Positions 30,495 to 53,112 of a stretch of 53,112 nt of DNA are shown piece by piece. Below the pieces are notes generated by a model, which had not been told where the DNA came from, made no database searches, and saw nothing but the letters and a program-made list of their open reading frames with translations. How positions within the stretch are numbered: the stretch's first letter is position 1; each line of letters starts with the position of its first letter. The position numbers and the translations under genes were made by a program. This DNA comes from a virus (lineage: Duplodnaviria > Caudoviricetes): the IMG/VR virus record IMGVR_UViG_3300027859_000022, positions 1 through 53,112 of that record. One strand, given 5' to 3'.

Positions 30495-33400
30495 ATGCCA
30501 ACTTATAATGTAAATGTAACCGACACAGAATCTTTACAAGTCGAAGCTGAATCTCCTGATGAAGCAAGAGCTAAAGTAAAAGCGATAATTGCAGAAAGAA
30601 CTTTAGCTCCACAAGCTGACAATATATTTTTTAATTACGATAGCGGAGTCAAAAACGCAAAGTTGAGATTTGATTTAGGACTTGCAGAAAACGAAGTAGA
30701 GAGAGAAAAAATACTTAGTAAGTATGTAGGTAACGAATACGCAGTTGATTCTTCAGGACAGTTAGCTTTGACACCAGAAGGCATGAAAATGCTAGGTCTT
30801 GCAGATCAAGTCAGGACTATAAAATTAAAAAATGGCCAGGAACTAGAACAAAATACCGTTATAGATGAAAGGACTTTTGGTTTTAACAGATATGATCTTG
30901 CAGATTTTTCAGGCGTAGTAGGCCCTATATTTGGTAGTGTAATAGCCTTAGTTCCTCAGTTAAGAGTAGCCAAAGTCTTAGCAAATCTTTTAGGTGGCAG
31001 ACCTGCTTTGTCTAACATGTTGCTTTCAGGATTAGGTGGAGCTGCAGGTAAAGGTGTTGAGGAGGCTTATGAAATTAATAAAGGTTATCAAGCACAAACT
31101 AGAGATGAGCTAAGAAATCTTTTAGCTTATGAAGGTGGTTTAGGCTTTGTTGGACAAGGGCTTGGCGAAGGTCTTTTTAAATTTTATTCTTTACTGTTAG
31201 GCAAACAAGCTCCTTTTGATAATTTAAGATTTCAACAACAAGCCATAAAAGGTAGATCTATTTTAGACATTATGAAACTAGATGAATCTTTTGGTAGAGA
31301 GGCTACAGAAAGAGAAATTAAAAAAGCTATAGCTCAGGGTAAAGTAGGTAAAAATGAAGTAAAAGCTTTACCATCACAATCAGCTTTGAATAGAGTTATA
31401 GCAGGTAGATTACAAGCTGTTTCAGAAACAGTTCTTGGTAATAAAAGAGTCCTAAGTACCAAAGCTTATCTAAGAGAAGAAATAGACAGACTAAACAGAC
31501 TTATCAACGGAGAAAACTTTGCTGGTGAAGAATTTGTAAAAGAATCTACTAGAGAACAAATTACAGGAGCTTTAAGTGCCGCAAGACAAAAATTAAGTTC
31601 AGCAGAAATTCAAACCAATAAACAGGTAAACAGCCTTGTACAAGAACTTATGGAAGGTATAACTTCTGCTGATGATTTTGGTAGTGCTTTAAATAGGAAG
31701 CAAATTGGAGAAATTTTAATAGACAGCCTTTCGGAATCACACAAAGCAGTAGAAGATCAGTTGAAGAAAAAATATATTAATGTTGATAAGATGCTTCTTG
31801 CAGTAGGAAAAGATGATCCTGAATTGCTTGAAGGTATAGCAAGATCTATAAACGAACATATTTCCGAATCCATTGGAAAAATAGCACAAGCTTACGGTAA
31901 AAAATACGGAAGAAATCCTTTAGAGCAAACAATTAAAGCTCCAAGAGAAATTGATGATCATACTTCAGACGAAGTAACAAATTTTGTAGAGGGCTTGTTA
32001 ATAAGAAAAAGAAGAATAGATGAAGCTTTGAATTATGAAGGTGGGTTTTTAAAGTATTGGGAAGATTTAGATCCAAGAGCTTTAAATCCAAAATTTCCTG
32101 AAATAGGTAGAGCACAAAAAGAACAACTTTTATTTGGTGAAAACTTACAAAGAATTAGAAACGATTTATCTACTTTGAAAGGACAAAGATTAAATAGCTT
32201 AAATGTCGGAAGAAATACTTCTTTATTAGACGACATCATTAAGATATTAGATAACCCAGAAGATGTTATTCATAATCCTGGCTTATTAAATATTCTAGAA
32301 AATCCAAACAGTTTAGTTAAGATGTTTACCAAAAAAGGAGAGGTAAAAGGCTATATAAATAAAAGATTAGATAAAACCGCATCTAGAGAAATTGCTAAAG
32401 CAGTAGAAGAATTGAGGTCAGCAAATAGGTTAGCAAGAGAAAGACTAGCTCCTTATGATTCTTTAAAAATAAAACAAATAATTGGTGAGTCGCAACAAGG
32501 TAATTACAACATCAATAGCGTTTATGATGAATTTATATTGTCAGGATCTAAAGACACAAAACCCTTTGAAGATTTTTTTAAAGCTATAAGAGATCATGAA
32601 GATTATTTGAGAAAAACTTATGGAAACGATCCAAAACTTCTAGCACAAAAACTTGAAAAATTTGGCGGAGAGCAATACATAAAAACACAATTACAAAGAA
32701 AGGTTTTACATGACGCTTGGCGTGAGTCTTACGACAAAACAAGCAAGTCTTTAGATTTCAAAAAATTTGCAGATGAGATATTAAAATTTGATAGGACAAA
32801 AGAAGGGAAAATGGAAATTATCTTTGGGGCGAACTACAAAAATATTTTAGACACAGTTACTCAATTAAGAAGAATAACTCCAAGCATGTATAACAAACAA
32901 CCAATAGAGCTAGAAAATTTAATTAACCAAATTGTAGAAACTGATGGCGGACTTAGAGATACTGCTACTGCACAAAAATTTTTGGATGCTTTGAAAAATA
33001 AATCTGTCGCTGCAAAAGAAAGAATTGCTTTTGAGCAAAATTCTATTATAAAAAGATTAGATGTTTCAGGAACTGACGAGATTGCAGATGTAGTATTCAA
33101 ACCAAATAGTGCTGCTAACATTCAGATAGTTAAAGATACTGTAGATCCAGAAACATTCATTGAAATACAACAAGCTAGTTTATCTAAATTGCTAAAAGAT
33201 TCTTTTGATCCATCCAAAGAAAAAATTACAGATATATTTAAACCTGACAGACTGAGAAGGACTTTAGATAGTTATGGAGATTCGACACTAGAGGCTATGT
33301 TTGGTAAAGAATCATTGATGGGTTTTAGAGCATTACAAAGAGCTTTAGATGGTTTAACTATAGAAAAGTCAGCAGGTACTCTTGTAGCTGCGGGTATTGC

Positions 33401-33839
33401 AGTAAACGCTTTAAGCATAGGTATGTTGCCAACTGTTGCAGGATTAGCACTTATGAGACAAGCTTTTTCAAGTCCTAGAATTTTAAATATATTAGCTAGT
33501 AAAGATCCTAAAGCTATTGGTAGAACAATTCAGTTCTTTATTAGGACTGCTAGACAACTTGGCATAAGATTAGTTGGTGATGCTATTTCTGAAGGAAGAG
33601 AACAAGCAGAACGTGGCATTGAAAGAGGTCAAGAAGAGTTGCAAGATATGCGAAACCAAAATCCAGATGTTAAATCTTTTGAAGAATCTTTAAGAAATTT
33701 AAGAGAGCAAAGCCAAAGAGACATTAGAAACTTACAATCTAGCACTCCTTTGCCTGAAGTAGAGCCCGTTAGCGTAGATCCGCTTTCTCCTGAAAGATTG
33801 GATTTTGCAGAAAGATTGGCTAATAGACCTGTTATTTAA
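30495..33839 (+). CDS. Large internal virion/ejection protein
   Basis: 1114 aa, mostly helical. Last gene of the virion operon, with Gly/Ala-rich hydrophobic stretches. Confidence 0.65.
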   Translation: MPTYNVNVTDTESLQVEAESPDEARAKVKAIIAERTLAPQADNIFFNYDSGVKNAKLRFDLGLAENEVEREKILSKYVGNEYAVDSSGQLALTPEGMKMLGLADQVRTIKLKNGQELEQNTVIDERTFGFNRYDLADFSGVVGPIFGSVIALVPQLRVAKVLANLLGGRPALSNMLLSGLGGAAGKGVEEAYEINKGYQAQTRDELRNLLAYEGGLGFVGQGLGEGLFKFYSLLLGKQAPFDNLRFQQQAIKGRSILDIMKLDESFGREATEREIKKAIAQGKVGKNEVKALPSQSALNRVIAGRLQAVSETVLGNKRVLSTKAYLREEIDRLNRLINGENFAGEEFVKESTREQITGALSAARQKLSSAEIQTNKQVNSLVQELMEGITSADDFGSALNRKQIGEILIDSLSESHKAVEDQLKKKYINVDKMLLAVGKDDPELLEGIARSINEHISESIGKIAQAYGKKYGRNPLEQTIKAPREIDDHTSDEVTNFVEGLLIRKRRIDEALNYEGGFLKYWEDLDPRALNPKFPEIGRAQKEQLLFGENLQRIRNDLSTLKGQRLNSLNVGRNTSLLDDIIKILDNPEDVIHNPGLLNILENPNSLVKMFTKKGEVKGYINKRLDKTASREIAKAVEELRSANRLARERLAPYDSLKIKQIIGESQQGNYNINSVYDEFILSGSKDTKPFEDFFKAIRDHEDYLRKTYGNDPKLLAQKLEKFGGEQYIKTQLQRKVLHDAWRESYDKTSKSLDFKKFADEILKFDRTKEGKMEIIFGANYKNILDTVTQLRRITPSMYNKQPIELENLINQIVETDGGLRDTATAQKFLDALKNKSVAAKERIAFEQNSIIKRLDVSGTDEIADVVFKPNSAANIQIVKDTVDPETFIEIQQASLSKLLKDSFDPSKEKITDIFKPDRLRRTLDSYGDSTLEAMFGKESLMGFRALQRALDGLTIEKSAGTLVAAGIAVNALSIGMLPTVAGLALMRQAFSSPRILNILASKDPKAIGRTIQFFIRTARQLGIRLVGDAISEGREQAERGIERGQEELQDMRNQNPDVKSFEESLRNLREQSQRDIRNLQSSTPLPEVEPVSVDPLSPERLDFAERLANRPVI

Positions 33840-35279: not shown

Positions 35280-37409
35280 CTACTCCTCAAAAAAGTTTGG
35301 ATCTACAGCAACTAATCTTTTAGTTGGCCTTCCTTTTCCTCCCACTTTGACTTCTACCTCTTGAATTTCTCTAGCATTCATAAGCCTTTCTATTATTTCT
35401 TTTACTTCATAAGACTTCATACTTCTAAACAGTTCATGTCTATCAACTTCTCTTTTTGATATACCCTCCCCATTTCTTGACCTAATAAAAGACAGCACTT
35501 GTTTTATTTTTGATTCTATTGCTGAACTTGCAACTCTATCTCTACAAGCTTCTATAAACAGCAAGTCATAGTATCTGACAAAATCAACACACCATTTCAT
35601 AATGTCCCCTGGAATCTTTTTTGCTTTGGGATTCTCCGCAAGAGTAACTGAAAGGGATAGTCGCATGGCTTTTTCTCTAGATCTTGATAGTAATGGCTCT
35701 AAGTTATCTTTCTCAAGTATATCTTGCCTTTTAACAATCTCAGATGCAAAGTCCTGCAGCACTAATTCTGCGTCTTGGTCAAAGTCTAGTACAACTTGCT
35801 CCAAATCAATATCGGCATTGTCAATAGCTACTTCATAAAAATCATTTATAGGTCGCCTTACATAATTAACCCAATTAACAATTCTTAATGGTGCATCTCT
35901 GAACTTTTTAAGTTGTGCAACTCTTCTTGGTTCTTTTGATTCTACAATTAAAAATCTGTTAAGAAATCCGTCTGCTATTCTTCCGCTGTTGAGAGCTTTA
36001 TAAAAGTTTTTAGGCACCGATAAACCAACTAGAGTTATGTTTGGCTTGTGTGTAAGTCGATTCATAAATTGGTCTTTATATTGGTCTGGAACATTCATTA
36101 AAGAATAATTATCAGGTCTTAAAGTACCATGACACCTACCCCAAGCTTCCATTAAAGTTTGAAGTCCATCTTCTCTATTAAAATTTTGTTGTCCGCCTAT
36201 TGACTCCAACCTTTTACCAAACTCATCCATAATGGTAATTTGTGTTGGTCTTTGTCTAAGTATTGAGTGCACAGCTCCACTTGAAGTATAGCCATCTCCT
36301 ACTATCAGCTTTGAATGTTGTGATTCGTTTAGTATGGTTTCTACAAATGTTTTTATGTTTTCTTTTCCTTGTCCTGACTTGGCAATACACATAAAAAACA
36401 AACTAGAAAAATTATTCATATTAGTTCTATAAACTCTGCCACAAGATACTGATGCCAAAGATAAAGCAGCGACCATAGATAATTCAGGTTGTGGTACTTG
36501 TGCAATATCTTCGCAAAAGTTATACATGTCTTTTAATAATCCAGGTGGATCATATAAATCTTTTGGTGGTTTTATATTATCAACTGCTTGAACAAACAAA
36601 GGAGCTTTTTGATTTTTTCTGTCATGTGTAGATTTCACGCTATCAACAACTTGATCAATTTCTCTGATAGTAAGTGGCGGATTATTATTAGTGTTCCACG
36701 ATCTTAAAAAGAATTTTGTAAAGTTAAGGTTTACATTTTTAGAAATCATATAACCTGCAATCCTTGCTGCCTGATCATTCCTTGATCCTTCATTAACTCC
36801 ATCAAGAGAGAAAGGTACAGTTATATTTTTATCTTTGGCACCTGACTCTTTAGGTACACCTGTAATTTTGTACCATTCTTTTTCCGTAAAATCAGGTAAA
36901 TCTCCAATATCATAAACACTCCATCCATCAAGAAAAACAGGTTTGTAAATTGCACCGTTTGCATGTCTATTGTAAGGAGCAATAATTAATCCGCCTTCTC
37001 CTCTAATATCAATAAGTCTTTCTATTGGCGTTTCATTTGTTCTTCTTGTGGCAAAGGTCGTAAAGTTTTGTGGATTATTGTAATAGAAGTGCATACCCTT
37101 ACCTGTAATAACTTTGTAAGGAGTTACTGGTAAATTTTCTTCTACCCAAGTCATAGCCTCAGGCGTGTCTGCATCTACTACAATAAATTTTCCACAAACT
37201 ATAGCAACGACAAGATCATCTCTATCTTTAAACCACTCTTCAACTTTTTCTCTTTCAGGTCTTTTGGTTTTGTATTCTTCCCAAGAGCCTAAATTTTTAG
37301 GGGGCTTTTTATCTTTCCTCTGCAAAGGAATTACACTAAGACCTTCTTCATAATAAGCCATAGCTAATTCATAAGGAGAGTCCTCCTCTGATAAATTTAT
37401 TTGAAACAT
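35280..37409 (-). CDS. Bifunctional primase/polymerase fused to PriCT and a DUF3987-like helicase
   Basis: SVIPL, VVDAD, TGKGMHFYY, DIRGEGG, EGSRND, AKSGQGKE, MDEFG and DGFLNRFL. Confidence 0.85.
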   Translation of the reverse strand: MFQINLSEEDSPYELAMAYYEEGLSVIPLQRKDKKPPKNLGSWEEYKTKRPEREKVEEWFKDRDDLVVAIVCGKFIVVDADTPEAMTWVEENLPVTPYKVITGKGMHFYYNNPQNFTTFATRRTNETPIERLIDIRGEGGLIIAPYNRHANGAIYKPVFLDGWSVYDIGDLPDFTEKEWYKITGVPKESGAKDKNITVPFSLDGVNEGSRNDQAARIAGYMISKNVNLNFTKFFLRSWNTNNNPPLTIREIDQVVDSVKSTHDRKNQKAPLFVQAVDNIKPPKDLYDPPGLLKDMYNFCEDIAQVPQPELSMVAALSLASVSCGRVYRTNMNNFSSLFFMCIAKSGQGKENIKTFVETILNESQHSKLIVGDGYTSSGAVHSILRQRPTQITIMDEFGKRLESIGGQQNFNREDGLQTLMEAWGRCHGTLRPDNYSLMNVPDQYKDQFMNRLTHKPNITLVGLSVPKNFYKALNSGRIADGFLNRFLIVESKEPRRVAQLKKFRDAPLRIVNWVNYVRRPINDFYEVAIDNADIDLEQVVLDFDQDAELVLQDFASEIVKRQDILEKDNLEPLLSRSREKAMRLSLSVTLAENPKAKKIPGDIMKWCVDFVRYYDLLFIEACRDRVASSAIESKIKQVLSFIRSRNGEGISKREVDRHELFRSMKSYEVKEIIERLMNAREIQEVEVKVGGKGRPTKRLVAVDPNFFEE

Positions 37410-44534: not shown

Positions 44535-47500
44535 ATTACCTCCTCTGTTTCTAATACTATACCAATCCATTTTACATTCCTCATGCTCTTTAAAGCTTGA
44601 GAAAGTAAACTGAAATCTGCTTGATTATCCACCGAAATCCAAACTATTGGTTTATTACCTAACTTGGCTTTTCTTGGATTGAGATCGCTTTGTATCGTTC
44701 TCAGATACTCTATAGCGTCTTGTACTTGTTTAAGTTTTAAGTTCTGCATTAATCTTTGTAATAAAAATCTTCTGAACATTCTATTAAAAATTTTACTTCT
44801 AATAAGTTATCTAATTCTTCTTGCCACCTTTCTTCTTTTGGCTCTGATTTAATTTGATTATTAGCAACTCCAATTAGACATTTAACAACTGCTAAAGCTG
44901 TTTCTAGTTCCTTGCTTGTTCTTTTGTGTGTAAGCTCTATACTCATGAGATCTCCTCTTTTTTAATAAATATTTCTCTTATGTCCTCTATAAAATATTGC
45001 ATAGTTTCTAAATCAACCTCGACTCCATCTCTTAGTTCAGATATTTGACTATGTACCCATTCAATTTTTTCGTAATCAGTCATGCGACCTTCCTTCCACA
45101 AGTTTAATTGTTCATCAATTATTGATGATAAATCCGAATAAAATTTTAAAGCTTCTTTGCGATCAGAAGTACAAAAACCTTCCATACAATCCATAGTGAA
45201 ATAATTATCTTCGTCAATTTGCAACTCGTCTTTTAGTTTATTTTTAATTACTTGGTCTATATCTTCAGTAATATCCCATTCGACAAAGTATCTAGTCTGT
45301 TTATCTTGACCTATTTCTTGTTCAAAATTACACCAAATTTCTTGATCTATATCTCCATGTTCTTTGTAAGTTCTCATATCTACTCCTCTAAGTAATTATT
45401 GAAACAAATTCTTTGTTATCGTCTTGTTGCACATCATCAATCTCAAGCCATTCATCTGCAAATACAGGTTTATCATTTTCCCAATCGCACACAACAAGTT
45501 TATCTTGCACTTGAATATCGACTATGGCTTTTGGATTGCATTCTTTTAATCTTTTTATTAGTTCGTGTACTCTCATACTTCCTCCTTATCAATTAAAAAC
45601 TCTCCAAATAAATCATTAGCAAGTTCGCTACATTTTTCTGCAAAACAATCTTGGTAATCATCAAGAAAATCTTCCCATTCATCATCACTTAATTCATTTT
45701 CTAGGTCTAAGTGTTCCTTCTTCATATATTGGTAAAGGGTATTACTTAGTTCTTGGTTTAGTTTAGGTATTTCCATTATGCGTCCTCCACTTCAAAAAAA
45801 TTACTAGGATAAGGACTGCATTCTTCAGAAGTATCTATAAAATGCTGTGCCTCCTTTTCACTATCAAAAACATGTTCAAGCAAATAAGAGTCCATAGTGT
45901 CTGTATATCTAATTTTAAATTTAAGTTTACTCATGCTTTCTCCTTTAAATTAATTCTTTATCGTGTTCGTAAGTTCCCTCATTCATGCTTTCCACCCATT
46001 TCCACTTGCCTTCAATCCTGTAAAGAATATCTTTGCAACATGACATACCATGAACAACCAAAGCTATATCGCCACTCCAAGCAGGACAGTCAGGCATATA
46101 CCCTTTTAAAACAACTACATTGGTTAAGCTATTTTCACAAAAATACTCTCCATGCTTATCTTCTATAAATCCATAAATATCATTTAACTCTTTTGCTATC
46201 TCTTTAAGATCATTAATTGTTGGCTCACTCATAAGTTCTCCTTGTTAAAAATTTCTACATTGTGTTCTATTATTTGAAAGTCTGTAATTTTTTCAGACAC
46301 GAGTCCATAGCCATCCCTTTGTTTATTATTTTCTTTTAACCACTCGTCAGGGTTATCTGTGATAGCAACTAAATCTCTATCGCCATAACTGTCATAAAAA
46401 TAAATTAAATATAGTTTCATTGTTCCTCCTCTTGTAAAAAAATATCTTGGTTATCTGATTGAATGCTTTGGTACTTATCGGGATTTTCTTGCATATCTTC
46501 GGAAGTCCATTTCTCTGCTAAATCCCAATCTTCTTCTTCGCTTGTGTTGTAAGGCAAATGATCTTTTGGATCAAATTCTTCTACATCTATAGCAGGATAT
46601 AATCTATCGTTCATATCTTGATCTAAAAGAAGTTCTGCTTTACCTTCGGCTTGTAATAAATCATCTGCTAATACTTTGTAATAGCCAACATAATCTGCCC
46701 TAACTCTAATATAAAAAGTTTTTTGATCTTTCATTTGCAAAACCTCTCAACAATATCTAGTTCTTCTCTAGTTATAGATTGGACTCGTTTAACCATGTAT
46801 AAAACACCATTCCAATCGTATGTATGCTCATCTTCAAAGTTTTCTTCAATTTGCTCATCTTCAAGTCCAAAAAAATCAATGAGTATGTCTTTATCAGTTA
46901 TGATCCCATTCTCATAATCTTTATAACTCATGTGGAAATAATCTGTTTCTCGATGCTCATTCCCACCGTCTAAAATTGCAAAATTTACATATATTAAATT
47001 TTCTGTCATTAGTTCTCCTCTACTGCTCTGTAGTCTGTTTTTCTAGTAATAAACATTTCTGCTTGGTACTTGTGGTTAAAATCAGCTACGGTTTTTCTAG
47101 TTTCAACATCAACCACCACATAAGATGTATCGACTTGGTTTCCTCTTTTCCTTATTACTTCAACTATATTGAACATATCTCCTCCTATTCTTGTTTGTTA
47201 ATAAAATCTTCAATGTAATCAAGAGTTTCATCAGGCGTTGCTCTATCCCAATAAGTTCTTGCTTTGTCCCATTCGTCAGACGACATAATATCTTCACAAC
47301 AATCAAACATTTTGTTGGTTAAATAACATTCGTCTATTTCGCCACACCACCAATCGTCATATTGTTTTTCGGTTTGTTCGTCTGATAAATTTCTAGTATC
47401 AATAATTTGTATTATTGATCTGATTTCTTTTCTTAATAAGCTTTTATTACTGCTCATTATCCTAACTCCTCGTCATTCCACTCGAATTCCCAACCAAGTT

Positions 47501-47887
47501 TAAGGCATAACTTTTTGTAAGTTTTTCTCCCACTTGTAGTCATTGATTGATAATCCCAACCTAGATCGTCAACCAAATTCACAATAATTGTGTATTCCTT
47601 TAATCCTATTTTTGAAATAAGTTTTTTTGCATTTTTATTCATTAGTCCTCCCTCACTATATTGAATTTTTGTTTAAGAAAGTTTTCTACTTCCCAAACTA
47701 TTTCGTCAAAAATTATTTGTCCTTCTGTAGTGAAATGACTAATTCCGTCTTGATCAGAAATAAGTTCGTCAAACTCAGTCAGTCCATTTACCGTTGGTGT
47801 GTTAAATTTTTTTATCATTACACTAGCTGAAAATTCATCAACCAATTCAAGATAATCTTCAGGTTTTAATATCGTTTTGCCACTCAT
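44531..47887 (-). other. Operon of about 14 small, mostly acidic early genes
   Basis: ORFs 44531-44779, 44749-44946, 44943-45377, 45388-45576, 45573-45776, 45776-45934, 45945-46232, 46229-46420, 46417-46740, 46731-47009, 47009-47176, 47185-47457, 47457-47642 and 47642-47887. Mostly overlapping start/stop codons with GGAG RBSs. Confidence 0.75.
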
Positions 47888-47928
47888 TAGTTTAATTCTC
47901 CTTTTAAATAATTGATTACTATTTGTAT

Positions 47929-47956
47929 ATTATAGACACTAATCAAGAGATTACAA
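47929..47956 (-). promoter_or_regulatory. Leftward early promoter
   Basis: TTGTAA-N16-TATAAT on the minus strand, flanked by TTAC-N5-GTAT boxes at 47916 and 47951. Confidence 0.6.
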
Positions 47957-47998
47957 TAAGTATCTATAAAAAATAATAAAAAATATTCAGTCGTTGCT

Positions 47999-48213
47999 AT
48001 CAGAAAAGGAAATCGCATTACCCCTCTCTTTTGATCGCTTACTGTAAAAAAAAGCAGTTTTTCCTAACTGAATAGGATCAACAAAGTCGGCTCACATAAT
48101 ATCTAATCGTTGTAATCAGAAAAGGAAATCGCATTACCCCTCTCTTTTGATCGCTTACTGTAAAAAAAAGCAGTTTTTCCTAACTGAATAGGATCAACAA
48201 AGTCGGCTCACAT
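47999..48213. repeat. 99-bp exact direct repeat (47999-48097 and 48115-48213)
   Basis: atcagaaaaggaaatcgcattacccc...aaagtcggctcacat twice, with a 17-bp spacer. Confidence 0.95.
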
Positions 48214-48407
48214 GTCGGGAGTCGGTTTAGGAATTGTCGGGTAAAGTTTTTGGAGTATATACACATAAGTTTAACACAACTGATCCTTCAGGCCAGGGGA
48301 TCTTTTCTTGGATCTCAAACCTGCCAGGATGATTTTTGGTTTACAAATAGTATAACTAAAAGTTATAAGAATTGTTTACTTTATGTAAAATTAATCTAAA
48401 TAAATAG

Positions 48408-48436
48408 TTGACAAATAGTAAACTGTCTGACATAAT
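48408..48436 (+). promoter_or_regulatory. Early sigma70 promoter
   Basis: TTGACA-N17-CATAAT. Confidence 0.8.
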
Positions 48437-48467
48437 ACACTCATAACTTAAACAAAAGGGAGACATT

Positions 48468-48710
48468 ATGACTAAAAAAGATTACGAACTAATAGCTAAA
48501 GCGATCAAAGATAATACCGAATGGGTGCGAGTTGATGACGGATATGGCGAAACTCTTGAAGAAAGAAAAATACATCCCGTTGATATTATGGTCACTCTAT
48601 CGATTGCTTTTGAAAAAGAAAATCCAAATTTTGACCAATACAAATTTTTTGATGCTTGTAAAAAACCTTATCCTGAAGATTGGAAACCCGAAAAAACTAC
48701 AGAAGAATAA
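48468..48710 (+). CDS. Early hypothetical protein
   Basis: MTKKDYELIAKAI...ENPNFDQYKFFDAC. RBS GGGAG. Confidence 0.8.
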   Translation: MTKKDYELIAKAIKDNTEWVRVDDGYGETLEERKIHPVDIMVTLSIAFEKENPNFDQYKFFDACKKPYPEDWKPEKTTEE

Positions 48711-48726
48711 AGTCGGGAGCAGTCGG

Positions 48727-48751
48727 GGGGAGCTTTTGCTCCCCTTTTTTT
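48727..48751 (+). terminator. Rho-independent terminator
   Basis: GGGGAGC-TTTT-GCTCCCC plus a T tract. Confidence 0.85.
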
Positions 48752-48846
48752 GTTTTAAAAAAAATCTAAAGTACACAATAAAGATCACAAGCTCCTCCAG
48801 CCAGGTAGATCTTGTTCTGCGTGTTCTCCAGGGGTAAAAACAATAG

Positions 48847-48875
48847 TTGACAATTAGTAGCCAAGTAGATATTAT
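48847..48875 (+). promoter_or_regulatory. Early sigma70 promoter
   Basis: TTGACA-N17-TATTAT. Confidence 0.8.
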
Positions 48876-48905
48876 TTAAGTTCACTAATTAACGGAGAAA
48901 AAGAT

Positions 48906-49064
48906 ATGAGTGAGAAACTTAAATATGTATGGAAAGAAAATAAGTACGGGCATTACCGTATATCTATAGTATCTATAGATGGTCTAGAGTTTAATTCTCT
49001 ACGCCAAGCAAAAGTTCATATTAAAAATAAAAAGGCGAGAGCTAGGAGGAGATTGAATGGCTGA
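48906..49064 (+). CDS. Small basic early protein (52 aa)
   Basis: RBS GGAG. MSEKLKYVWKENKYG...FNSLRQAK. Confidence 0.65.
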   Translation: MSEKLKYVWKENKYGHYRISIVSIDGLEFNSLRQAKVHIKNKKARARRRLNG

Positions 49065-49389
49065 TTTAAAAAGTTCAACAGACGAAAGACTTTACGAGAT
49101 GTGTAAAGACATTCAAGAAAACATTCCTAACTATCAATTTCATGATCCAGAAGATGACAACTATCTTGAAGTATATGATGAAAAATATATTGTTGGTATA
49201 GATGGCGAGTTTCAAGACTGTATCCTGATGGTTGCAGGTGGTGGTCCAGTTATATGGATTGATACTTGGAGTCAAGAGGTCCAGGGGTATTGGGGTACGG
49301 ATAAAGTAGCTCTGCCGATATATGACTACGAGCATATAAAAGACCACTTTGAAGAAATGTGCGTGGGTAAAACTATAGGTCTTTCATGA
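49057..49389 (+). CDS. Early hypothetical protein
   Basis: ILMVAGGGPVIWIDT...GYWG. RBS AGGAGGAG. Confidence 0.8.
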   Translation: MADLKSSTDERLYEMCKDIQENIPNYQFHDPEDDNYLEVYDEKYIVGIDGEFQDCILMVAGGGPVIWIDTWSQEVQGYWGTDKVALPIYDYEHIKDHFEEMCVGKTIGLS

Positions 49390-49460
49390 TGATGGAAATG
49401 GAAATAGTTTTACTGACCTTAATAGCTCTAGTAGTGTTGGTTGATTACTTACTAAGCTAG
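49386..49460 (+). CDS. Membrane micropeptide (24 aa)
   Basis: MMMEMEIVLLTLIALVVLVDYLLS. Paralogue at 44101. Confidence 0.65.
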   Translation: MMMEMEIVLLTLIALVVLVDYLLS

Positions 49461-49478
49461 TCGGAGTCGGAGCAATCG

Positions 49479-49509
49479 GGGGCAGTTTTCGGACTGCCCT
49501 CTCTTATTT
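49479..49509 (+). terminator. Rho-independent terminator
   Basis: GGGCAGTT-TTCG-GACTGCCC followed by TCTCTTATTT. Confidence 0.75.
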
Positions 49510-49588
49510 GGATCTGAATATAAACACACAAAAACAACCAGCCAGGTATGCCAGGAGAGGAAGTGGGTTTGGATATGTTTTTGTTTTG

Positions 49589-49617
49589 TTTACAAATAGT
49601 ATATTTACTGTTATAAT
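49589..49617 (+). promoter_or_regulatory. Early sigma70 promoter
   Basis: TTTACA-N17-TATAAT with an extended TG. Confidence 0.8.
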
Positions 49618-49639
49618 AAAATCTTTACGGAGAAACATT

Positions 49640-49939
49640 ATGAAACTATTAAAAGATGCTAAAGCTAATTTGACTGACGAGCTTATAGATGTTGTTCTTA
49701 AATCAGAAACTGATGATAAAGAATATGATGTTGGTTATTACTTTGGAGTTAAGACAGTAATTCAAAATAAAGAGATAAAAGATGCCGTAGCAGGTATTAG
49801 CTATATAGTTGGAGAGGTTGAAGAGAAACATTATGCTGAACATTATAATGTTGAAAATCCTAACGACATTCCAACAGAAGAACTGCAAGAGCATGTTTAC
49901 AAATATATCAGAATTCTTGTAGATAATTTTGGAGCTTAG
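49640..49939 (+). CDS. Early hypothetical protein
   Basis: RBS GGAG and ACATTATG start just after the promoter. Confidence 0.75.
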   Translation: MKLLKDAKANLTDELIDVVLKSETDDKEYDVGYYFGVKTVIQNKEIKDAVAGISYIVGEVEEKHYAEHYNVENPNDIPTEELQEHVYKYIRILVDNFGA

Positions 49940-49940
49940 T

Positions 49941-50195
49941 ATGTCGGAATACCTAGATAGAATAAACCATCACGAGTTTGATATGAAGATTGGACTTAAG
50001 CAAGGCACATTTGAAATGTTCGGACACATCAACTCTGATGGGGATATTGACTACGATTTCTTCTTAGACCAAAAGCATTTAGATTGTGGCTGTCTTATGA
50101 TTTCGGTTGCAGATAGTAGCGAGTCGTATTGGTGGGAATGGATTGTTTGCGATATTTTAAAAACATACGATTTCAATAAAAAAAGATTTCTTTAG
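49941..50195 (+). CDS. Early hypothetical protein (paralogue A)
   Basis: LKQGTFEMF...YDFFLDQ shared with the 50370 gene. Confidence 0.75.
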   Translation: MSEYLDRINHHEFDMKIGLKQGTFEMFGHINSDGDIDYDFFLDQKHLDCGCLMISVADSSESYWWEWIVCDILKTYDFNKKRFL

Positions 50196-50210
50196 TCGGA
50201 GTCGGAGGTC

Positions 50211-50241
50211 GGGCAACTCTTAGGGGTTGTCCTTTCTTTTT
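50211..50241 (+). terminator. Rho-independent terminator
   Basis: GGGCAACTC-TTAG-GGGTTGTCC plus a T-rich tail. Confidence 0.75.
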
Positions 50242-50315
50242 GCCTGAAGGATATATATACACAAATAATCACAAATTTATGATCCAGGCAAGTTGTTGTG
50301 CTAGTTCTCTCTAAG

Positions 50316-50344
50316 TTTACTTTTAGTAATAACCAGGTTATAAT
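50316..50344 (+). promoter_or_regulatory. Early sigma70 promoter
   Basis: TTTACT-N17-TATAAT. Confidence 0.75.
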
Positions 50345-50369
50345 AAATAAAACTTAAATGGAGAATAAT

Positions 50370-50675
50370 ATGAGTGAGGAGTATCAAGACTATATTGTTG
50401 ACGGTTTGCCTGAATACAATTTTAAGCTAGAACTTAAACAGGGGACATTTGAAATGTTTGCAACTATCAATAGCTATGGCTTTATGGACTATAACTTCTT
50501 CCTGGATCAACAGCTTTTAGATGGTGGTGTGTACGGAGGATATTGGTGTAAGTCAGATAGCTATGGCGACTTCAATGAAAGTGATGAGAGCAGTCTTTAT
50601 GAGCAAGAGTGGGGTTATCTCTGCTCATTCGTTCTTAAAGATTACGACTTTGAAAATAAAACTTGGGGTGTGTAA
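50370..50675 (+). CDS. Early hypothetical protein (paralogue B)
   Basis: LKQGTFEMF...YNFFLDQ...LKDYDF. RBS GGAG. Confidence 0.75.
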   Translation: MSEEYQDYIVDGLPEYNFKLELKQGTFEMFATINSYGFMDYNFFLDQQLLDGGVYGGYWCKSDSYGDFNESDESSLYEQEWGYLCSFVLKDYDFENKTWGV

Positions 50676-51013
50676 TGACGACAAAAGTGTATTGTGATGA
50701 ATGCGATAAAGTTTTACATGTAAATTGTGCAGGTGGTGTCGGAACAGAAGTAGATGTGGAGATGCCAAATGCTGATTATGTTTTAAGGATTGGAGATTTT
50801 GACACAGATTTATACTTGTGTCCAGCTTGGAATACGAATGACTTTCATGTCTGTCTTGATTGCTACTACGAGAAGTATGTGTGCAAAGAAGGTTGGGTAG
50901 ATGTGTCGGCTCAACTGTTTGAGTTCATGCAAGAGATTGGAATGGAAGAACAGTATGCAGATACTAGAAAACACCTGACTGATATGATCCAGAGGGGTAT
51001 TGACAAAAAGTAG
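50675..51013 (+). CDS. Cys-rich putative Zn-binding early protein
   Basis: CDEC and CLDC motifs. TAATG overlap with the previous gene. Confidence 0.7.
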   Translation: MTTKVYCDECDKVLHVNCAGGVGTEVDVEMPNADYVLRIGDFDTDLYLCPAWNTNDFHVCLDCYYEKYVCKEGWVDVSAQLFEFMQEIGMEEQYADTRKHLTDMIQRGIDKK

Positions 51014-51027
51014 AAAGTAGCTATACT
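51000..51027 (+). promoter_or_regulatory. Sigma70 promoter driving a non-coding transcript
   Basis: TTGACA-N16-TATACT. Confidence 0.75.
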
Positions 51028-51033
51028 AACTTG

Positions 51034-51110
51034 GTCAATAATAGCTTTTGCTATTCTTGGTCATAATGTCCCAAATTGAAACCTCTAGTCTCGGCTAGGG
51101 GTTTCTCTTT
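51034..51110 (+). ncRNA. Candidate antisense small RNA (about 75 nt)
   Basis: Own promoter, hairpin 51040-51055, linker GGUCAUAAUGUCCC, terminator hairpin 51078-51105 plus UCUUU. No ORF of useful length. Confidence 0.7.
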
Positions 51111-51289
51111 ATGGGCGAAGGTAAGTCGGCAGTCGGGTGTCGGGTTTTCTTTTGTACGGGATTTACAGGGGAGCTGGGGTATGTCCACAATATAAACACA
51201 ATATTTTTTTTAGGATCCTGTGGGTAAATTTGGGGATTGGGGTTTGAAAAGACAGGCCAGACTTATTTAAATTATTTTTGCTTTGAGGG

Positions 51290-51318
51290 TTTACATTAAG
51301 TAATCTATTTGTTATTGT
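51290..51318 (+). promoter_or_regulatory. Early sigma70 promoter
   Basis: TTTACA-N17-TATTGT with an extended TG. Confidence 0.65.
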
Positions 51319-51347
51319 GTGCTTATAAACAATTAAAGGAGGACATT

Positions 51348-51692
51348 ATGGTTTATATAAGAGAATGGGAAGTAGAAAAAGTATTTCAATCTTTATTGTC
51401 ATTAAATGATGAAAAGAAATATTTACTTTTAAATGATTATAGAGAGTTGCAAAAAATTCAAAGTGATTATGCAAAAGAAATAAAACCACTTGAAAACAAA
51501 ATAAAAAAACTAGAAGAAAAAATAAATCAAAAAAGAACTACTGTATCTCAATATAGAAGAAGTTATATGTGTAGGCATTTAAAACAATTAGATTTGCCTG
51601 TTTCAAAAATGGAAAAATTTGTGCATGACAGTTTTACTATTTTGGAAGAACAAATAAGACTTTTAGCTTTTAAAAAAGAGGAGGATAAGTAA
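51348..51692 (+). CDS. Early coiled-coil protein
   Basis: RBS AAGGAGG and ACATTATG start. Confidence 0.75.
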   Translation: MVYIREWEVEKVFQSLLSLNDEKKYLLLNDYRELQKIQSDYAKEIKPLENKIKKLEEKINQKRTTVSQYRRSYMCRHLKQLDLPVSKMEKFVHDSFTILEEQIRLLAFKKEEDK

Positions 51693-52081
51693 TGAAAGGA
51701 TATATTATTGATAGTAATTTAAAGGGCGTTTTTCCAATAGATATTAGAAGTGATATGGATTACAAAGACATCTATAAGTATTTACATACAGATGTTAAGC
51801 GAGTAAGTGCTTTTGATGCAGTTCGGGTAAGAGGTACTAATGATTTGATTTATGTTGATGACGAGGGTTTATTAACTAGGGAGAATTATATGTTTGTTTT
51901 TGATCACTTGGACAAACATCATCTATTCGGGAATGGCTTAATACTTGGTACTGATACTGAAGGAGAAAGCATGACTCCCGAAATGTCATTAAATTGGTAT
52001 AGAGATAAAATTACCTTTGCAGATGAGTTGGTTTTGTGTGAGGACTATTTAGTTCCTCCTGTCTTTGTGCCTATTAAATAA
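51692..52081 (+). CDS. DUF3846-like protein
   Basis: DLIYVDDEGLL and LFGNGLILGTDTEGES. Confidence 0.65.
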   Translation: MKGYIIDSNLKGVFPIDIRSDMDYKDIYKYLHTDVKRVSAFDAVRVRGTNDLIYVDDEGLLTRENYMFVFDHLDKHHLFGNGLILGTDTEGESMTPEMSLNWYRDKITFADELVLCEDYLVPPVFVPIK

Positions 52082-52083
52082 AT

Positions 52084-52113
52084 TTTACTTTTAGTATCTA
52101 CTCGTGGTAAGCT
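52084..52113 (+). promoter_or_regulatory. Early sigma70 promoter
   Basis: TTTACT-N18-TAAGCT with an extended TG. Confidence 0.55.
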
Positions 52114-52145
52114 TACCTTATTAACTAATCAATTAAGGAGACATT

Positions 52146-52388
52146 ATGAGAGTTAAAAAACTATTAATAAAAGTAGAGTTAGAGAATGGTGCCGAATGTA
52201 ATTTCGTTGAGTATCAAGCTTTTAGCTTAGTAATAAATGGCACACCTTATATTGTGAACGGAGAGTTCGATACTATCGATATGGAACGAGTTGTTCGCAT
52301 GACTGAGGACAGCATAAGGAGAGAGGGCAACACCATTGTTAATGGGCAAGTCCAAAATCCTAGATTGGAGAATGATTTAGACAGCTAG
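52146..52388 (+). CDS. Early hypothetical protein
   Basis: RBS AAGGAG and ACATTATG start. Confidence 0.75.
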   Translation: MRVKKLLIKVELENGAECNFVEYQAFSLVINGTPYIVNGEFDTIDMERVVRMTEDSIRREGNTIVNGQVQNPRLENDLDS

Positions 52389-52407
52389 AACAATTCTCCC
52401 TAGTTGG

Positions 52408-52442
52408 AAGAGTCAAGCAGAAATGCTTGGCTCTTTTTTTTT
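52408..52442 (+). terminator. Rho-independent terminator
   Basis: AAGAGTCAAGCA-GAAA-TGCTTGGCTCTT plus a T tract. Confidence 0.85.
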
Positions 52443-52615
52443 GGGACTCTTATTGGTCGGGAAAAATGATGCAGGTCGGCAGCTCTCTGGGTCGGCACCC
52501 CAAAATGGTATATATACACAAAGGTAGGTACAAGCACAATAATACACACAAACAATAACAATCATTTTAACAATTCTTCTTTTTGGGTTATATTATGCTC
52601 ATGTATGGCATAAGT

Positions 52616-52669
52616 AGTAGGCTCAGACTTTTCCTAAACTCTTCTCCTCTAGATTTGTTTGGGCCTACT
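52616..52669 (+). ncRNA. Hairpin with a large pyrimidine-rich loop in the leader of 52687
   Basis: 13-bp stem AGTAGGCTCAGAC/GTTTGGGCCTACT with two G-U pairs. Loop contains AAACUCUUCUCCUCU. Confidence 0.5.
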
Positions 52670-52686
52670 CACTACGGAGTAAAGAT

Positions 52687-52998
52687 ATGGAAAACATGAT
52701 GAATCCAGGAATGGGTATGAACGAAGAATTAGAAACTTTATCAAGTCAAGATATGGATGAGGCAAAAGCAGCTATGGGCGAACTCATCAATATGATCGCA
52801 GAAATGAAAGCTGCTGGCATGTCAGATGAAGAAATAAATCAATTTTTAAGTGAGTTTGGTTTGACTTTAGAAGAAGTTTTAATGGCAGACCAAGCATTAA
52901 AAAATCCTGAAATGTTAAATGATCCTAACATGATGGGTGGACAGCCTGAAATGGCTCAAAACAATCAAATTCAAGCACAATTAGATGAATTAATGTAA
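52687..52998 (+). CDS. Acidic Met-rich hypothetical protein
   Basis: ORF track. RBS GGAG. Confidence 0.75.
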   Translation: MENMMNPGMGMNEELETLSSQDMDEAKAAMGELINMIAEMKAAGMSDEEINQFLSEFGLTLEEVLMADQALKNPEMLNDPNMMGGQPEMAQNNQIQAQLDELM

Positions 52999-53112
52999 TG
53001 GCTAGACAACGTTCTGATTTAGATAATAATATTTTAAGTTCCCTAGGGGAAGCAGTAGTAACTGAAACTGACAAGATTTTAGAAAACCCTAGTATGATTG
53101 ACCTCTTTCCGA
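52998..53112 (+). CDS. N-terminus of a gene running off the window
   Basis: TAATG overlap. MARQRSDLDNNILSSLGE... stays open to the end. Confidence 0.6.
   Translation, partial: MARQRSDLDNNILSSLGEAVVTETDKILENPSMIDLFP

Follow-up and report, generated by a model that had tools for sequence, protein, structure and literature searches.

What is known of trans-acting small RNAs encoded by phages comes mainly from temperate phages of enterobacteria and Vibrio, and the majority of these RNAs target host genes or just one phage gene. In phages P1 and P7, the c4 antisense RNA is processed from the operon of its single target, icd-ant, serves lysogenic immunity and differs between the two phages. Its exposed sequences pair around the ribosome-binding site (RBS) of phage mRNA elsewhere, blocking translation (PMC12197685, in the part available). 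Here we analyse IMG/VR record IMGVR_UViG_3300027859_000022, a single 53,112-bp contig from a tailed marine phage with a G+C content of about 34% (the whole record is the window, to which all positions refer), and in particular the stretch 51034–51112, which is a real, strongly conserved non-coding unit. Judging from its sequence, the best explanation, which we hold at about even odds, is that this unit encodes a trans-acting antisense small RNA (sRNA) that would occlude the RBS and AUG of several early-gene leaders of the same phage, all of which carry a common tag at the start codon.

The predicted RNA resembles c4 in being a small phage RNA with predicted pairing at the RBS of phage mRNA. 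Unlike c4, it has its own promoter and terminator, several dispersed predicted targets and a seed that is invariant across the clade, and in the examined parts of the phage genome we noted no lysogeny genes; its own promoter, neighbouring early proteins without a family match and the absence of an Rfam match all set it apart from a c4-type element. The sar RNA of P22 and the OOP RNA of lambda are transcribed opposite their targets and are hence fully complementary to them. Both are phage RNAs of about 70–80 nt, each with a promoter and a terminator of its own, and both use pairing to repress a phage gene, OOP being entered as cis and sar as trans in the table of PMC12197685 (part of the source available). 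The RNA described here, unlike these two, would be encoded 0.3–2.6 kb from its predicted targets and share with them a complementarity of only 9–14 nt. VpdS of phage VP882, PreS of lambda and the prophage RNA DicF pair with their targets in trans, DicF at the start region of ftsZ (available parts of PMC12197685 and bioRxiv 10.1101/2024.10.31.621285). Whereas those RNAs mainly target host mRNAs, with Hfq required by VpdS and PreS, the predicted regulon here consists of the phage's own start-tagged early cassettes. We found no sequence similarity between the unit and c4, sar, OOP, VpdS, PreS or DicF, and no Rfam match.

Two systems of T4-type phages are comparable in logic or in layout. T4 RegA is a translational repressor and T4 RegB an endoribonuclease that cuts GGAG in early mRNAs; the analogy is functional only, namely one factor acting on many early genes through a short RBS motif, and both factors are proteins whereas the candidate here is an RNA. 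The boundaries of the PeSL cassettes run from terminator to promoter and, to our knowledge, have no reported antisense relation to gene starts. In these cassettes, σ70-like early promoters and terminator stem-loops are conserved and the genes between them are shuffled (PMC2839356 and PMC4122927, in the parts available), and the block at 48–53 kb of the window behaves as a whole in the same way. Unlike a PeSL, the unit at 51034–51112 is ordered promoter then terminator around a conserved unpaired stretch complementary to gene leaders, with an extra conserved hairpin. Our literature search returned no phage sRNA aimed at a common start tag of several early genes; the tables of non-coding RNA candidates in PMC10914365, a source available in part, lay outside its scope and could hold comparable cases. 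What would set the present RNA apart from known systems is that its regulon would be made up of early cassettes of the phage itself, marked by a start-codon tag on exchangeable leader modules.

Anatomy and conservation of the unit

The block at 48–53 kb consists of small open reading frames (ORFs) arranged in cassettes, each with a σ70-like promoter and a terminator hairpin, and we label it early by likeness to other phages. A preliminary description of the locus had proposed a stand-alone sRNA formed by a promoter TTGACA-N16-TATACT, a stretch without a real ORF and a terminator, and each of these parts is found where it was placed (Table 1). The RNA would stand alone only in part. It has its own promoter and terminator, but the promoter overlaps the stop codon (51011–51013) of ORF 50663–51013 with no terminator between them, and the unit is therefore also the 3′ end of the upstream operon.

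Table 1 Predicted small-RNA unit, complementary early-gene starts and adjoining signal
Feature	Position	Strand	Details
σ70-type promoter of the sRNA	51000–51027	+	TTGACA 51000–51005, 16 nt, TATACT 51022–51027; 11/12 consensus matches
Predicted non-coding RNA, about 79 nt	51034–51112	+	Predicted start 7 nt past the −10 box, predicted end at the terminator tail
5′ stem-loop SL1	51035–51060	+	UCAA / U / AAUAGC, loop UUUU, GCUAUU / C / UUGG
Unpaired linker (seed)	51061–51077	+	UCAUAAUGUCCCAAAUU, including the anti-start CAU; core seed UCAUAAUGUCCC
Intrinsic terminator	51078–51112	+	Stem 51078–51105, 12 pairs, loop of 4, U-rich tail UCUCUUUAU; also ends the upstream operon
Predicted target 1, gene 48468–48710	48462–48475	+	RBS spacer, AUG and first codons (GACATTATGACTAA); promoter 48408–48436
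Predicted target 2, gene 52146–52388	52140–52149	+	GACATTATGA; weak own promoter TTTACT-18-TAAGCT at 52084–52113
Predicted target 3, gene 51348–51692	51341–51353	+	GGACATTATGGTT; promoter 51290–51318
Predicted target 4, gene 49640–49939	49635–49643	+	ACATTATGA; promoter 49589–49617
Three (A)GTCGG pentamers and T-run	51122–51155	+	Directly 3′ of the RNA terminator; kept beside the RNA unit in relatives

The stretch 51034–51112 folds with a minimum free energy of −25.4 kcal/mol (z = −5.9), and none of 200 shuffled sequences folds as well. In the predicted fold, SL1 is followed by about 15 unpaired bases and then by the terminator hairpin, whose U-rich tail is interrupted. The probability of being unpaired over UAAUGUCCC is 0.68–1.00 across the 8 variants folded, all 8 of which leave the seed predicted unpaired, and at least 0.97 in the window's own variant; the first UCA of the linker is partly held in the base of SL1.

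The unit has no conserved ORF. Its sole + strand ORF, found by eye, spans 10 codons from the ATG at 51066 without a Shine–Dalgarno (SD) sequence, and we rejected a micro-peptide in this frame, which in relatives reads as a different stretch of 7 codons. A − strand micro-ORF (ATG, MTKNSKSYY) was likewise set aside, because by eye its frame shifts with a 1-nt loop deletion among relatives. No conserved − strand gene that could make the unit a cis-antisense RNA lies under 51034–51112, and the − strand ORF 51051–51188 is broken in relatives by an 8–9-nt insertion in the terminator loop. Across the window, no Rfam family reached its gathering score (the best sub-threshold match was RybB, at 15.3 bits against a cutoff of 40 and an E value of about 1) and ARAGORN returned no tRNA or tmRNA gene. 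As predicted from sequence, the unit thus combines the features of the sRNA class: its own promoter, an intrinsic terminator, an ORF-less transcript and a conserved, accessible seed.

Protein searches with two flanking genes, followed by searches with DNA patterns, recovered the unit in 28 related contigs: 9 IMG/VR viral contigs, including a complete 55-kb genome with terminal repeats (G001), 18 metagenome contigs and 1 contig filed under a metagenome-assembled genome (MAG). All nine IMG/VR contigs that cover the locus carry the unit, only two of them sharing the upstream gene and only one the downstream gene. A 41-nt core comprising the hairpin and linker, from TCAATAATAGC to CCCAAA, is invariant except for one loop T. 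Within it, UCAUAAUGUCCCAAA is identical in 28/28 related contigs, the linker varying only in its last 2–4 nt, and both arms of SL1 are invariant in all homologues around a loop of 4 T or 3 T. The idea that the segment might be an inverted, decayed gene fragment not conserved in relatives, which the preliminary description had named as a way to be wrong, is contradicted by this core.

Where the unit does vary, the changes are confined to particular places. We aligned 14 distinct RNA variants, in which MAFFT misaligned the terminators of short-loop against long-loop forms, and found variation limited to the first 3 nt, one loop T, the last 2–4 bases of the linker, the terminator and the tail. 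Changes in the terminator stem keep pairing (the closing C–G becomes G–C, and an A–U becomes G–U), and the terminator loop has 4 nt or 8–9 nt by the folds. Upstream, the promoter spacer diverges among related contigs. The −10 box stays in the same place as TATACT, TAGTAT, TAATAT, TACTAT or TATTAT; positions 3–5 vary while T1, A2 and T6 are retained across these five variants, which argues that the promoter is used. Taken as a whole, the pattern of variation looks like that expected of a base-pairing sRNA and argues against a decaying remnant.

A metagenome scan in which only the −35 part of the promoter and the 5′ hairpin arm were fixed yielded 18 contigs, every one of which has an identical 3′ arm, linker and seed. 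In the viral contigs, a scan that fixed only the hairpin arms gave 40 matches, 9 of them the homologues and 31 unrelated, and no homologue with a different seed. Among 80 contigs with a terminase 75–100% identical to that of the window, the context SD-ACATT-ATG occurs in only three, all at 99–100% identity; one of the three carries the RNA unit and the other two end before its expected place. Tag and RNA thus appear confined to a common narrow clade. More distant relatives have few promoter–leader units near the terminase, so that an analogous system with another seed was neither found nor excluded there. The MAG contig in our set (L191, NHFF02000028.1, a genome-length 53,352 bp) carries the RNA unit and two tagged leaders and is filed under Gammaproteobacteria bacterium TMED104; probably a phage genome was binned here together with a bacterium, so that the label points to the host weakly at best.

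A 16-mer search of the viral collection yields many non-homologous matches, its 46 matches comprising the 9 homologues and 37 unrelated sites. Most of the unrelated sites belong to one gene family of high-G+C phages (loci L023–L060, about 25 contigs), in which the reverse strand reads GGGACATTATGACCAA at an apparent gene start and which is unrelated to the element. In two further unrelated viral contigs, L058 (1590–1710) and L061, the 16-mer TTGGTCATAATGTCCC sits in an intergenic leader about 60 nt upstream of the start context GAGGACATTAATATG; it could fold back in cis on that RBS, or be there by chance.

Complementarity to the starts of early genes

The preliminary description had noticed that the linker is the reverse complement of the start context of four genes, each the first behind its own early promoter, and this holds over 11, 10, 10 and 9 nt. 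The segment GGTCATAATGTCCC (51059–51072) is the reverse complement of GACATTATGAC at 48462–48472 (11 nt), and the linker also complements GGACATTATG at 51341–51350 (10 nt), GACATTATGA at 52140–52149 (10 nt) and ACATTATGA at 49635–49643 (9 nt). Genes 48468, 49640, 51348 and 52146 therefore share the start context (G)ACAUUAUG(A). All four do come first behind promoters of their own, the one of 52146 being weak; it was found by a regular expression and is absent from our main promoter list.

Several observations bear on whether these matches are selective. First, we ranked the 92 translation-initiation regions of a crude, own-made and curated gene list with a pairing model that allows perfect helices of at least 6 pairs and charges the opening energies of both partners. 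Gene 48468 ranks first, with 14 contiguous pairs including one G–U and −11.6 kcal/mol; genes 52146, 51348 and 49640 rank second (−7.6 kcal/mol), fourth (−6.2 kcal/mol) and fifth (a weak −5.3 kcal/mol). A loop-tolerant duplex scan of the whole genome was too noisy for ranking targets.

Second, the motif is enriched in the genome and rare at starts. On both strands together, ACATTATG occurs 10 times, as against 2.57 ± 1.71 in dinucleotide shuffles, of which none of 100 reaches 10; for GACATTATGA the count is 5, with 0.13 expected. Of the 92 genes, only 4 have ACATTATG ending at their start codon, all behind early promoters in the 48–53 kb block, so the count that the preliminary description had asked for does not show it to be common at unrelated starts. 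The first genes of three other cassettes (48906, 50358 and 52687) and all internal genes lack it at their starts. In every tagged gene, the tag coincides exactly with the start codon, which points to a role at the level of translation.

Third, few other stretches of the genome could do the same. When every 17-nt window of both strands was treated as a mock seed, only 28 of 106,192 complement at least 5 initiation regions by at least 9 nt, and the linker window is among them; most of the others are anti-SD strings or lie opposite genes or coding sequence.

Fourth, the tag recurs in relatives on leaders of different genes. In the 18 metagenome contigs, 34 of 63 first-gene starts behind early-type promoters end in CATTATG, and the 51 distinct leaders collected over all sequences include 25 with ACATT-ATG and 2 with GCATT-ATG. 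Tagged leaders precede about ten different ORF beginnings in at least 7 different backgrounds of the 5′ untranslated region, and ACATT is kept while the SD-proximal bases vary. Directly downstream of the RNA unit, different contigs carry different genes, and in most contigs this gene has the tag. For the 52146 homologue, nearly every contig has the same leader, and leader plus first codons are 99–100% identical in 8 relatives.

A further part of the preliminary description, bipartite pairing through a second segment (51044–51055), did not survive. The match to 48491–48502 exists at 11 of 12 positions, but the stretch reads GATTGCTAAAGT in a relative that keeps that gene (L002), and the segment itself is hidden in SL1 (loop and 3′ arm), a hairpin whose opening costs about 7 kcal/mol in the model.

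Seed matches also occur inside genes. In two of them, the primase-helicase gene and a 1114-aa ORF, 30495–33839 (31266–31275, + strand), GACATTATGA stands in mRNA sense at an internal Met codon that is in frame. Of all perfect matches to the accessible seed, the longest in the genome is the 12-nt GGGACATTATGA; it lies at such an in-frame Met codon in the primase gene (35595–35606, − strand), is preceded by a further G and resembles an internal RBS. At this site, 7 of 10 close relatives have GAC and 3 the synonymous GAT, and most relatives at 73–76% identity have Thr in place of Met.

Proposed action and competing explanations

We infer production of the RNA, its pairing in the cell, repression as the effect and the timing of its action along the following lines. 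Transcription from its own early-type σ70 promoter would yield the RNA, as would transcription of the upstream operon, whose 3′ end it forms, and the RNA would end at the intrinsic terminator. Its seed UCAUAAUGUCCC would pair with the last SD bases, the ACAUU spacer, the AUG and 1–4 following bases of tagged mRNAs, whose tag (G/A)ACAUUAUG would be carried on short leaders of about 25 nt from the predicted start site to the AUG; these leaders have no evident structure of their own. The duplex would begin in the 3′ part of the SD, cover the AUG and reach +4 or +7, all within the 30S footprint, so that the expected effect is repressed initiation. Translation would be dampened or shut off for the early cassettes 48468, 52146 and 51348, and weakly for 49640; the RNA may set a threshold, or bring about the shut-off with a delay as it builds up.

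Some wider consequences would follow. With the tag being part of portable promoter–leader modules, unrelated ORFans that land behind such a module would gain the same control. We offer tentatively, as a somewhat unlikely extension, that in a lytic marine phage the RNA is a counterpart of T4 RegA, governing an early host-takeover regulon through the portable start-codon tag ACAUUAUG while untagged modules escape. Seed and tag being identical throughout the clade, a resident phage could also use its RNA to silence early genes of a related phage that superinfects the cell.

A number of observations weigh against antisense control of the tagged starts. In contigs that keep the RNA, tags change while the seed does not: GAAATTATG in L049 and L180 is a mismatched tag, and GGACATTTATG at the 51348-type start of G002 and L185 has an inserted T. 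Of the kinds of tag variant (AAATT, inserted T, C to T), only the C-to-T change, in GATATTATG (L040, L174 and L181), retains a G–U pair; seed and tag never vary together, so that no covariation links them. The helices are short (9–14 bp) and the model energies modest (−5.3 to −11.6 kcal/mol), and an unrelated start, 10600, ranks third of 92, above two of the four targets. The sequence invariance of the SL1 arms is left unexplained by pairing at the linker, and the promoter of the RNA is early-type like those of its targets, which makes the regulatory logic unclear. One metatranscriptome run holds a 1172-nt assembled contig of a relative spanning 50499–51357, which speaks neither for nor against a discrete small RNA; it shows neither the ends nor the strand nor the level of an RNA and, crossing the gene, the RNA unit and the next leader, could be read-through or DNA.

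Another objection concerns where the seed came from. Read as its reverse complement (TTTGGGACATTATGACCAAG), the seed region by eye resembles the 48468-type leader with its first three codons, GGGA(G/A)ACATTATGACTAAA, both encoding M-T-K, and the tagged leaders themselves look paralogous (families D3 and D7). The simplest history is probably that the seed arose by inverted duplication of a leader and was then fixed. With leaders that look paralogous and a seed that looks like an inverted copy of one, the four matches amount effectively to one motif and the targets are not independent. The earlier proposal that one RNA represses several cassettes through a shared start tag is supported in part: it keeps its conserved unit, its accessible seed and its ranks of 1, 2, 4 and 5 among 92 initiation regions, and loses the weight of four separate targets. 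An inverted-copy origin also means that complementarity alone is no proof of function; the argument is carried by the pattern of conservation.

The same resemblance also favours another explanation, which we regard as unlikely: that the unit is a conserved boundary module of a mosaic region, a compound terminator or 3′ untranslated region plus promoter, in which the anti-start match is a by-product of an inverted leader fragment. The module would be kept for ending the upstream operon and as homology for cassette shuffling, with no regulation in trans. The early block is indeed mosaic: intergenic promoter, leader and terminator modules are common to 4–9 relatives while the intervening ORFs are swapped, and homology often ends a few codons past the ATG (48000–53000; loci L001–L009, L019–L049 and L173–L191). 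The RNA unit is matched in conservation by other intergenic stretches (for example 48120–48140, 48720–48740, 52120–52180 and 52380–52440). Its promoter, linker-end and terminator types occur in independent combinations among contigs, which suggests recombination inside it, and PeSLs have been described as drivers of shuffling (PMC2839356, available in part). A boundary module, however, has no need for an invariant unpaired 15-nt stretch amid a diverging stem, loop and promoter spacer; its order of promoter then terminator without a gene between is the reverse of a PeSL; and the constant positions of the −10 box argue for a promoter in use.

It is quite unlikely, in our estimate, that the RNA is real and has other main targets, such as host mRNAs or internal sites of phage genes, or that it acts on a host RNA chaperone or a host sRNA, as binding partner or sponge. 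The invariance of SL1 hints at a further partner, the longest seed match (GGGACATTATGA) lies inside the primase gene with a second sense-strand GACATTATGA in ORF 30495–33839, and Hfq-dependent phage sRNAs that act on host mRNAs, VpdS and PreS, are known (PMC12197685, in the part available). However, the primase site varies synonymously in 3 of 10 close relatives and its Met is mostly lost in distant ones, and targets of this kind leave unexplained why the tag coincides exactly with the start codon in many unrelated early ORFs.

That coincidence also has no rationale if the 11-bp GACATTATGAC serves as the operator of a DNA-binding protein from phage or host and no RNA–RNA pairing is involved, an explanation we hold to be very unlikely. 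The sequence contains a near-palindrome, CAT-N-ATG, five early promoters have it 18–35 nt past their −10 box, one of them in inverted orientation, and the adjoining AATAGC-N4-GCTATT is a perfect DNA palindrome. The distance to the promoter varies, however; the spacing of the SL1 palindrome shifts by 1 bp among relatives, which fits an RNA loop better than an operator with two half-sites; and no candidate binding protein is at hand among early proteins without a family match. Pure coincidence in an AT-rich genome, with a functionless unit, is hardly credible: an inverted match of 8–11 nt is by itself no rarity when 75 nt are compared with an AT-rich genome of 53 kb, and the loop-tolerant scan yields many comparable energies, but the core is invariant in 28/28 related contigs amid diverged flanks, the motif is limited to promoter-proximal starts and the seed window is among the top 28 of 106,192.

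Genomic surroundings and significance

ORF 52998–53112 continues in frame at 1–956, directly upstream of the large terminase gene; as this ORF wraps the record ends, the assembly is circularly closed or permuted and was cut within a gene. Genes lie on the + strand at 1–34 kb, on the − strand at 34–48 kb and again on the + strand at 48–53 kb, and the gene content includes a large terminase, a portal, tail-fibre proteins, a primase-helicase, a DNA methyltransferase and an exonuclease. The closest cultured terminases, at 58–63% identity, are those of DSL-LC04, 023Pt_psg01 and the Pelagibacter phages HTVC027P and HTVC023P; the words promoter, terminator and small RNA are all absent from the paper on HTVC023P-type genomes (PMC9599517). 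A collection of cultured phages gave no DNA match to 50600–51400, and the neighbouring 129-aa protein has a single weak match there, in Ruegeria phage RpAliso. None of the ORFs at 48–53 kb reaches a curated Pfam cutoff, the nearest match being DUF3846 for gene 51692 (26.2 bits against a cutoff of 27.5), and their PHROG matches are marginal only (E value of 0.0025 or weaker).

The early block has further recurrent elements. Terminator-like sites number 13 in 46000–53112, against 3.8 expected from shuffles. Arrays of 2–4 copies of the pentamer (A)GTCGG, all on the + strand, lie at 48214–48225, 48712–48730, 49460–49470, 50195–50212 and 51125–51143, in each case past the stop codon of an early cassette and ahead of its terminator hairpin or T-run; the pattern GTCGG-N1-3-GTCGG has 6 matches and none in 100 shuffles. 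These arrays may be a protein- or RNA-binding signal linked to termination. In the 450-nt gap between the diverging − and + gene blocks, 47982–48213 holds two tandem copies of a 116-nt unit, 96% identical to each other and 81–100% identical in six relatives, which could be a replication origin or another non-coding RNA. The early ORFs 49941–50195 and 50358–50675 are paralogous, with a 109-nt direct repeat at 72% identity (49981–50089 and 50419–50527) and common peptide stretches such as LKQGTFEMF and FFLDQ.

Should antisense control of the tagged starts prove wrong, the element would still rank with the most strongly conserved non-coding sequences in this group of phages and call for another explanation. 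Should it prove right, an uncultured and apparently widespread marine phage clade, whose relatives appear in viral, metagenome and MAG collections, would co-regulate several of its own early cassettes with one sRNA. As the tag travels with the promoter–leader module and not with the gene, regulation would then be tied to the modular shuffling of early ORFans, and the unit would be a compact example of how a phage can time the shut-off of its early genes without a protein.

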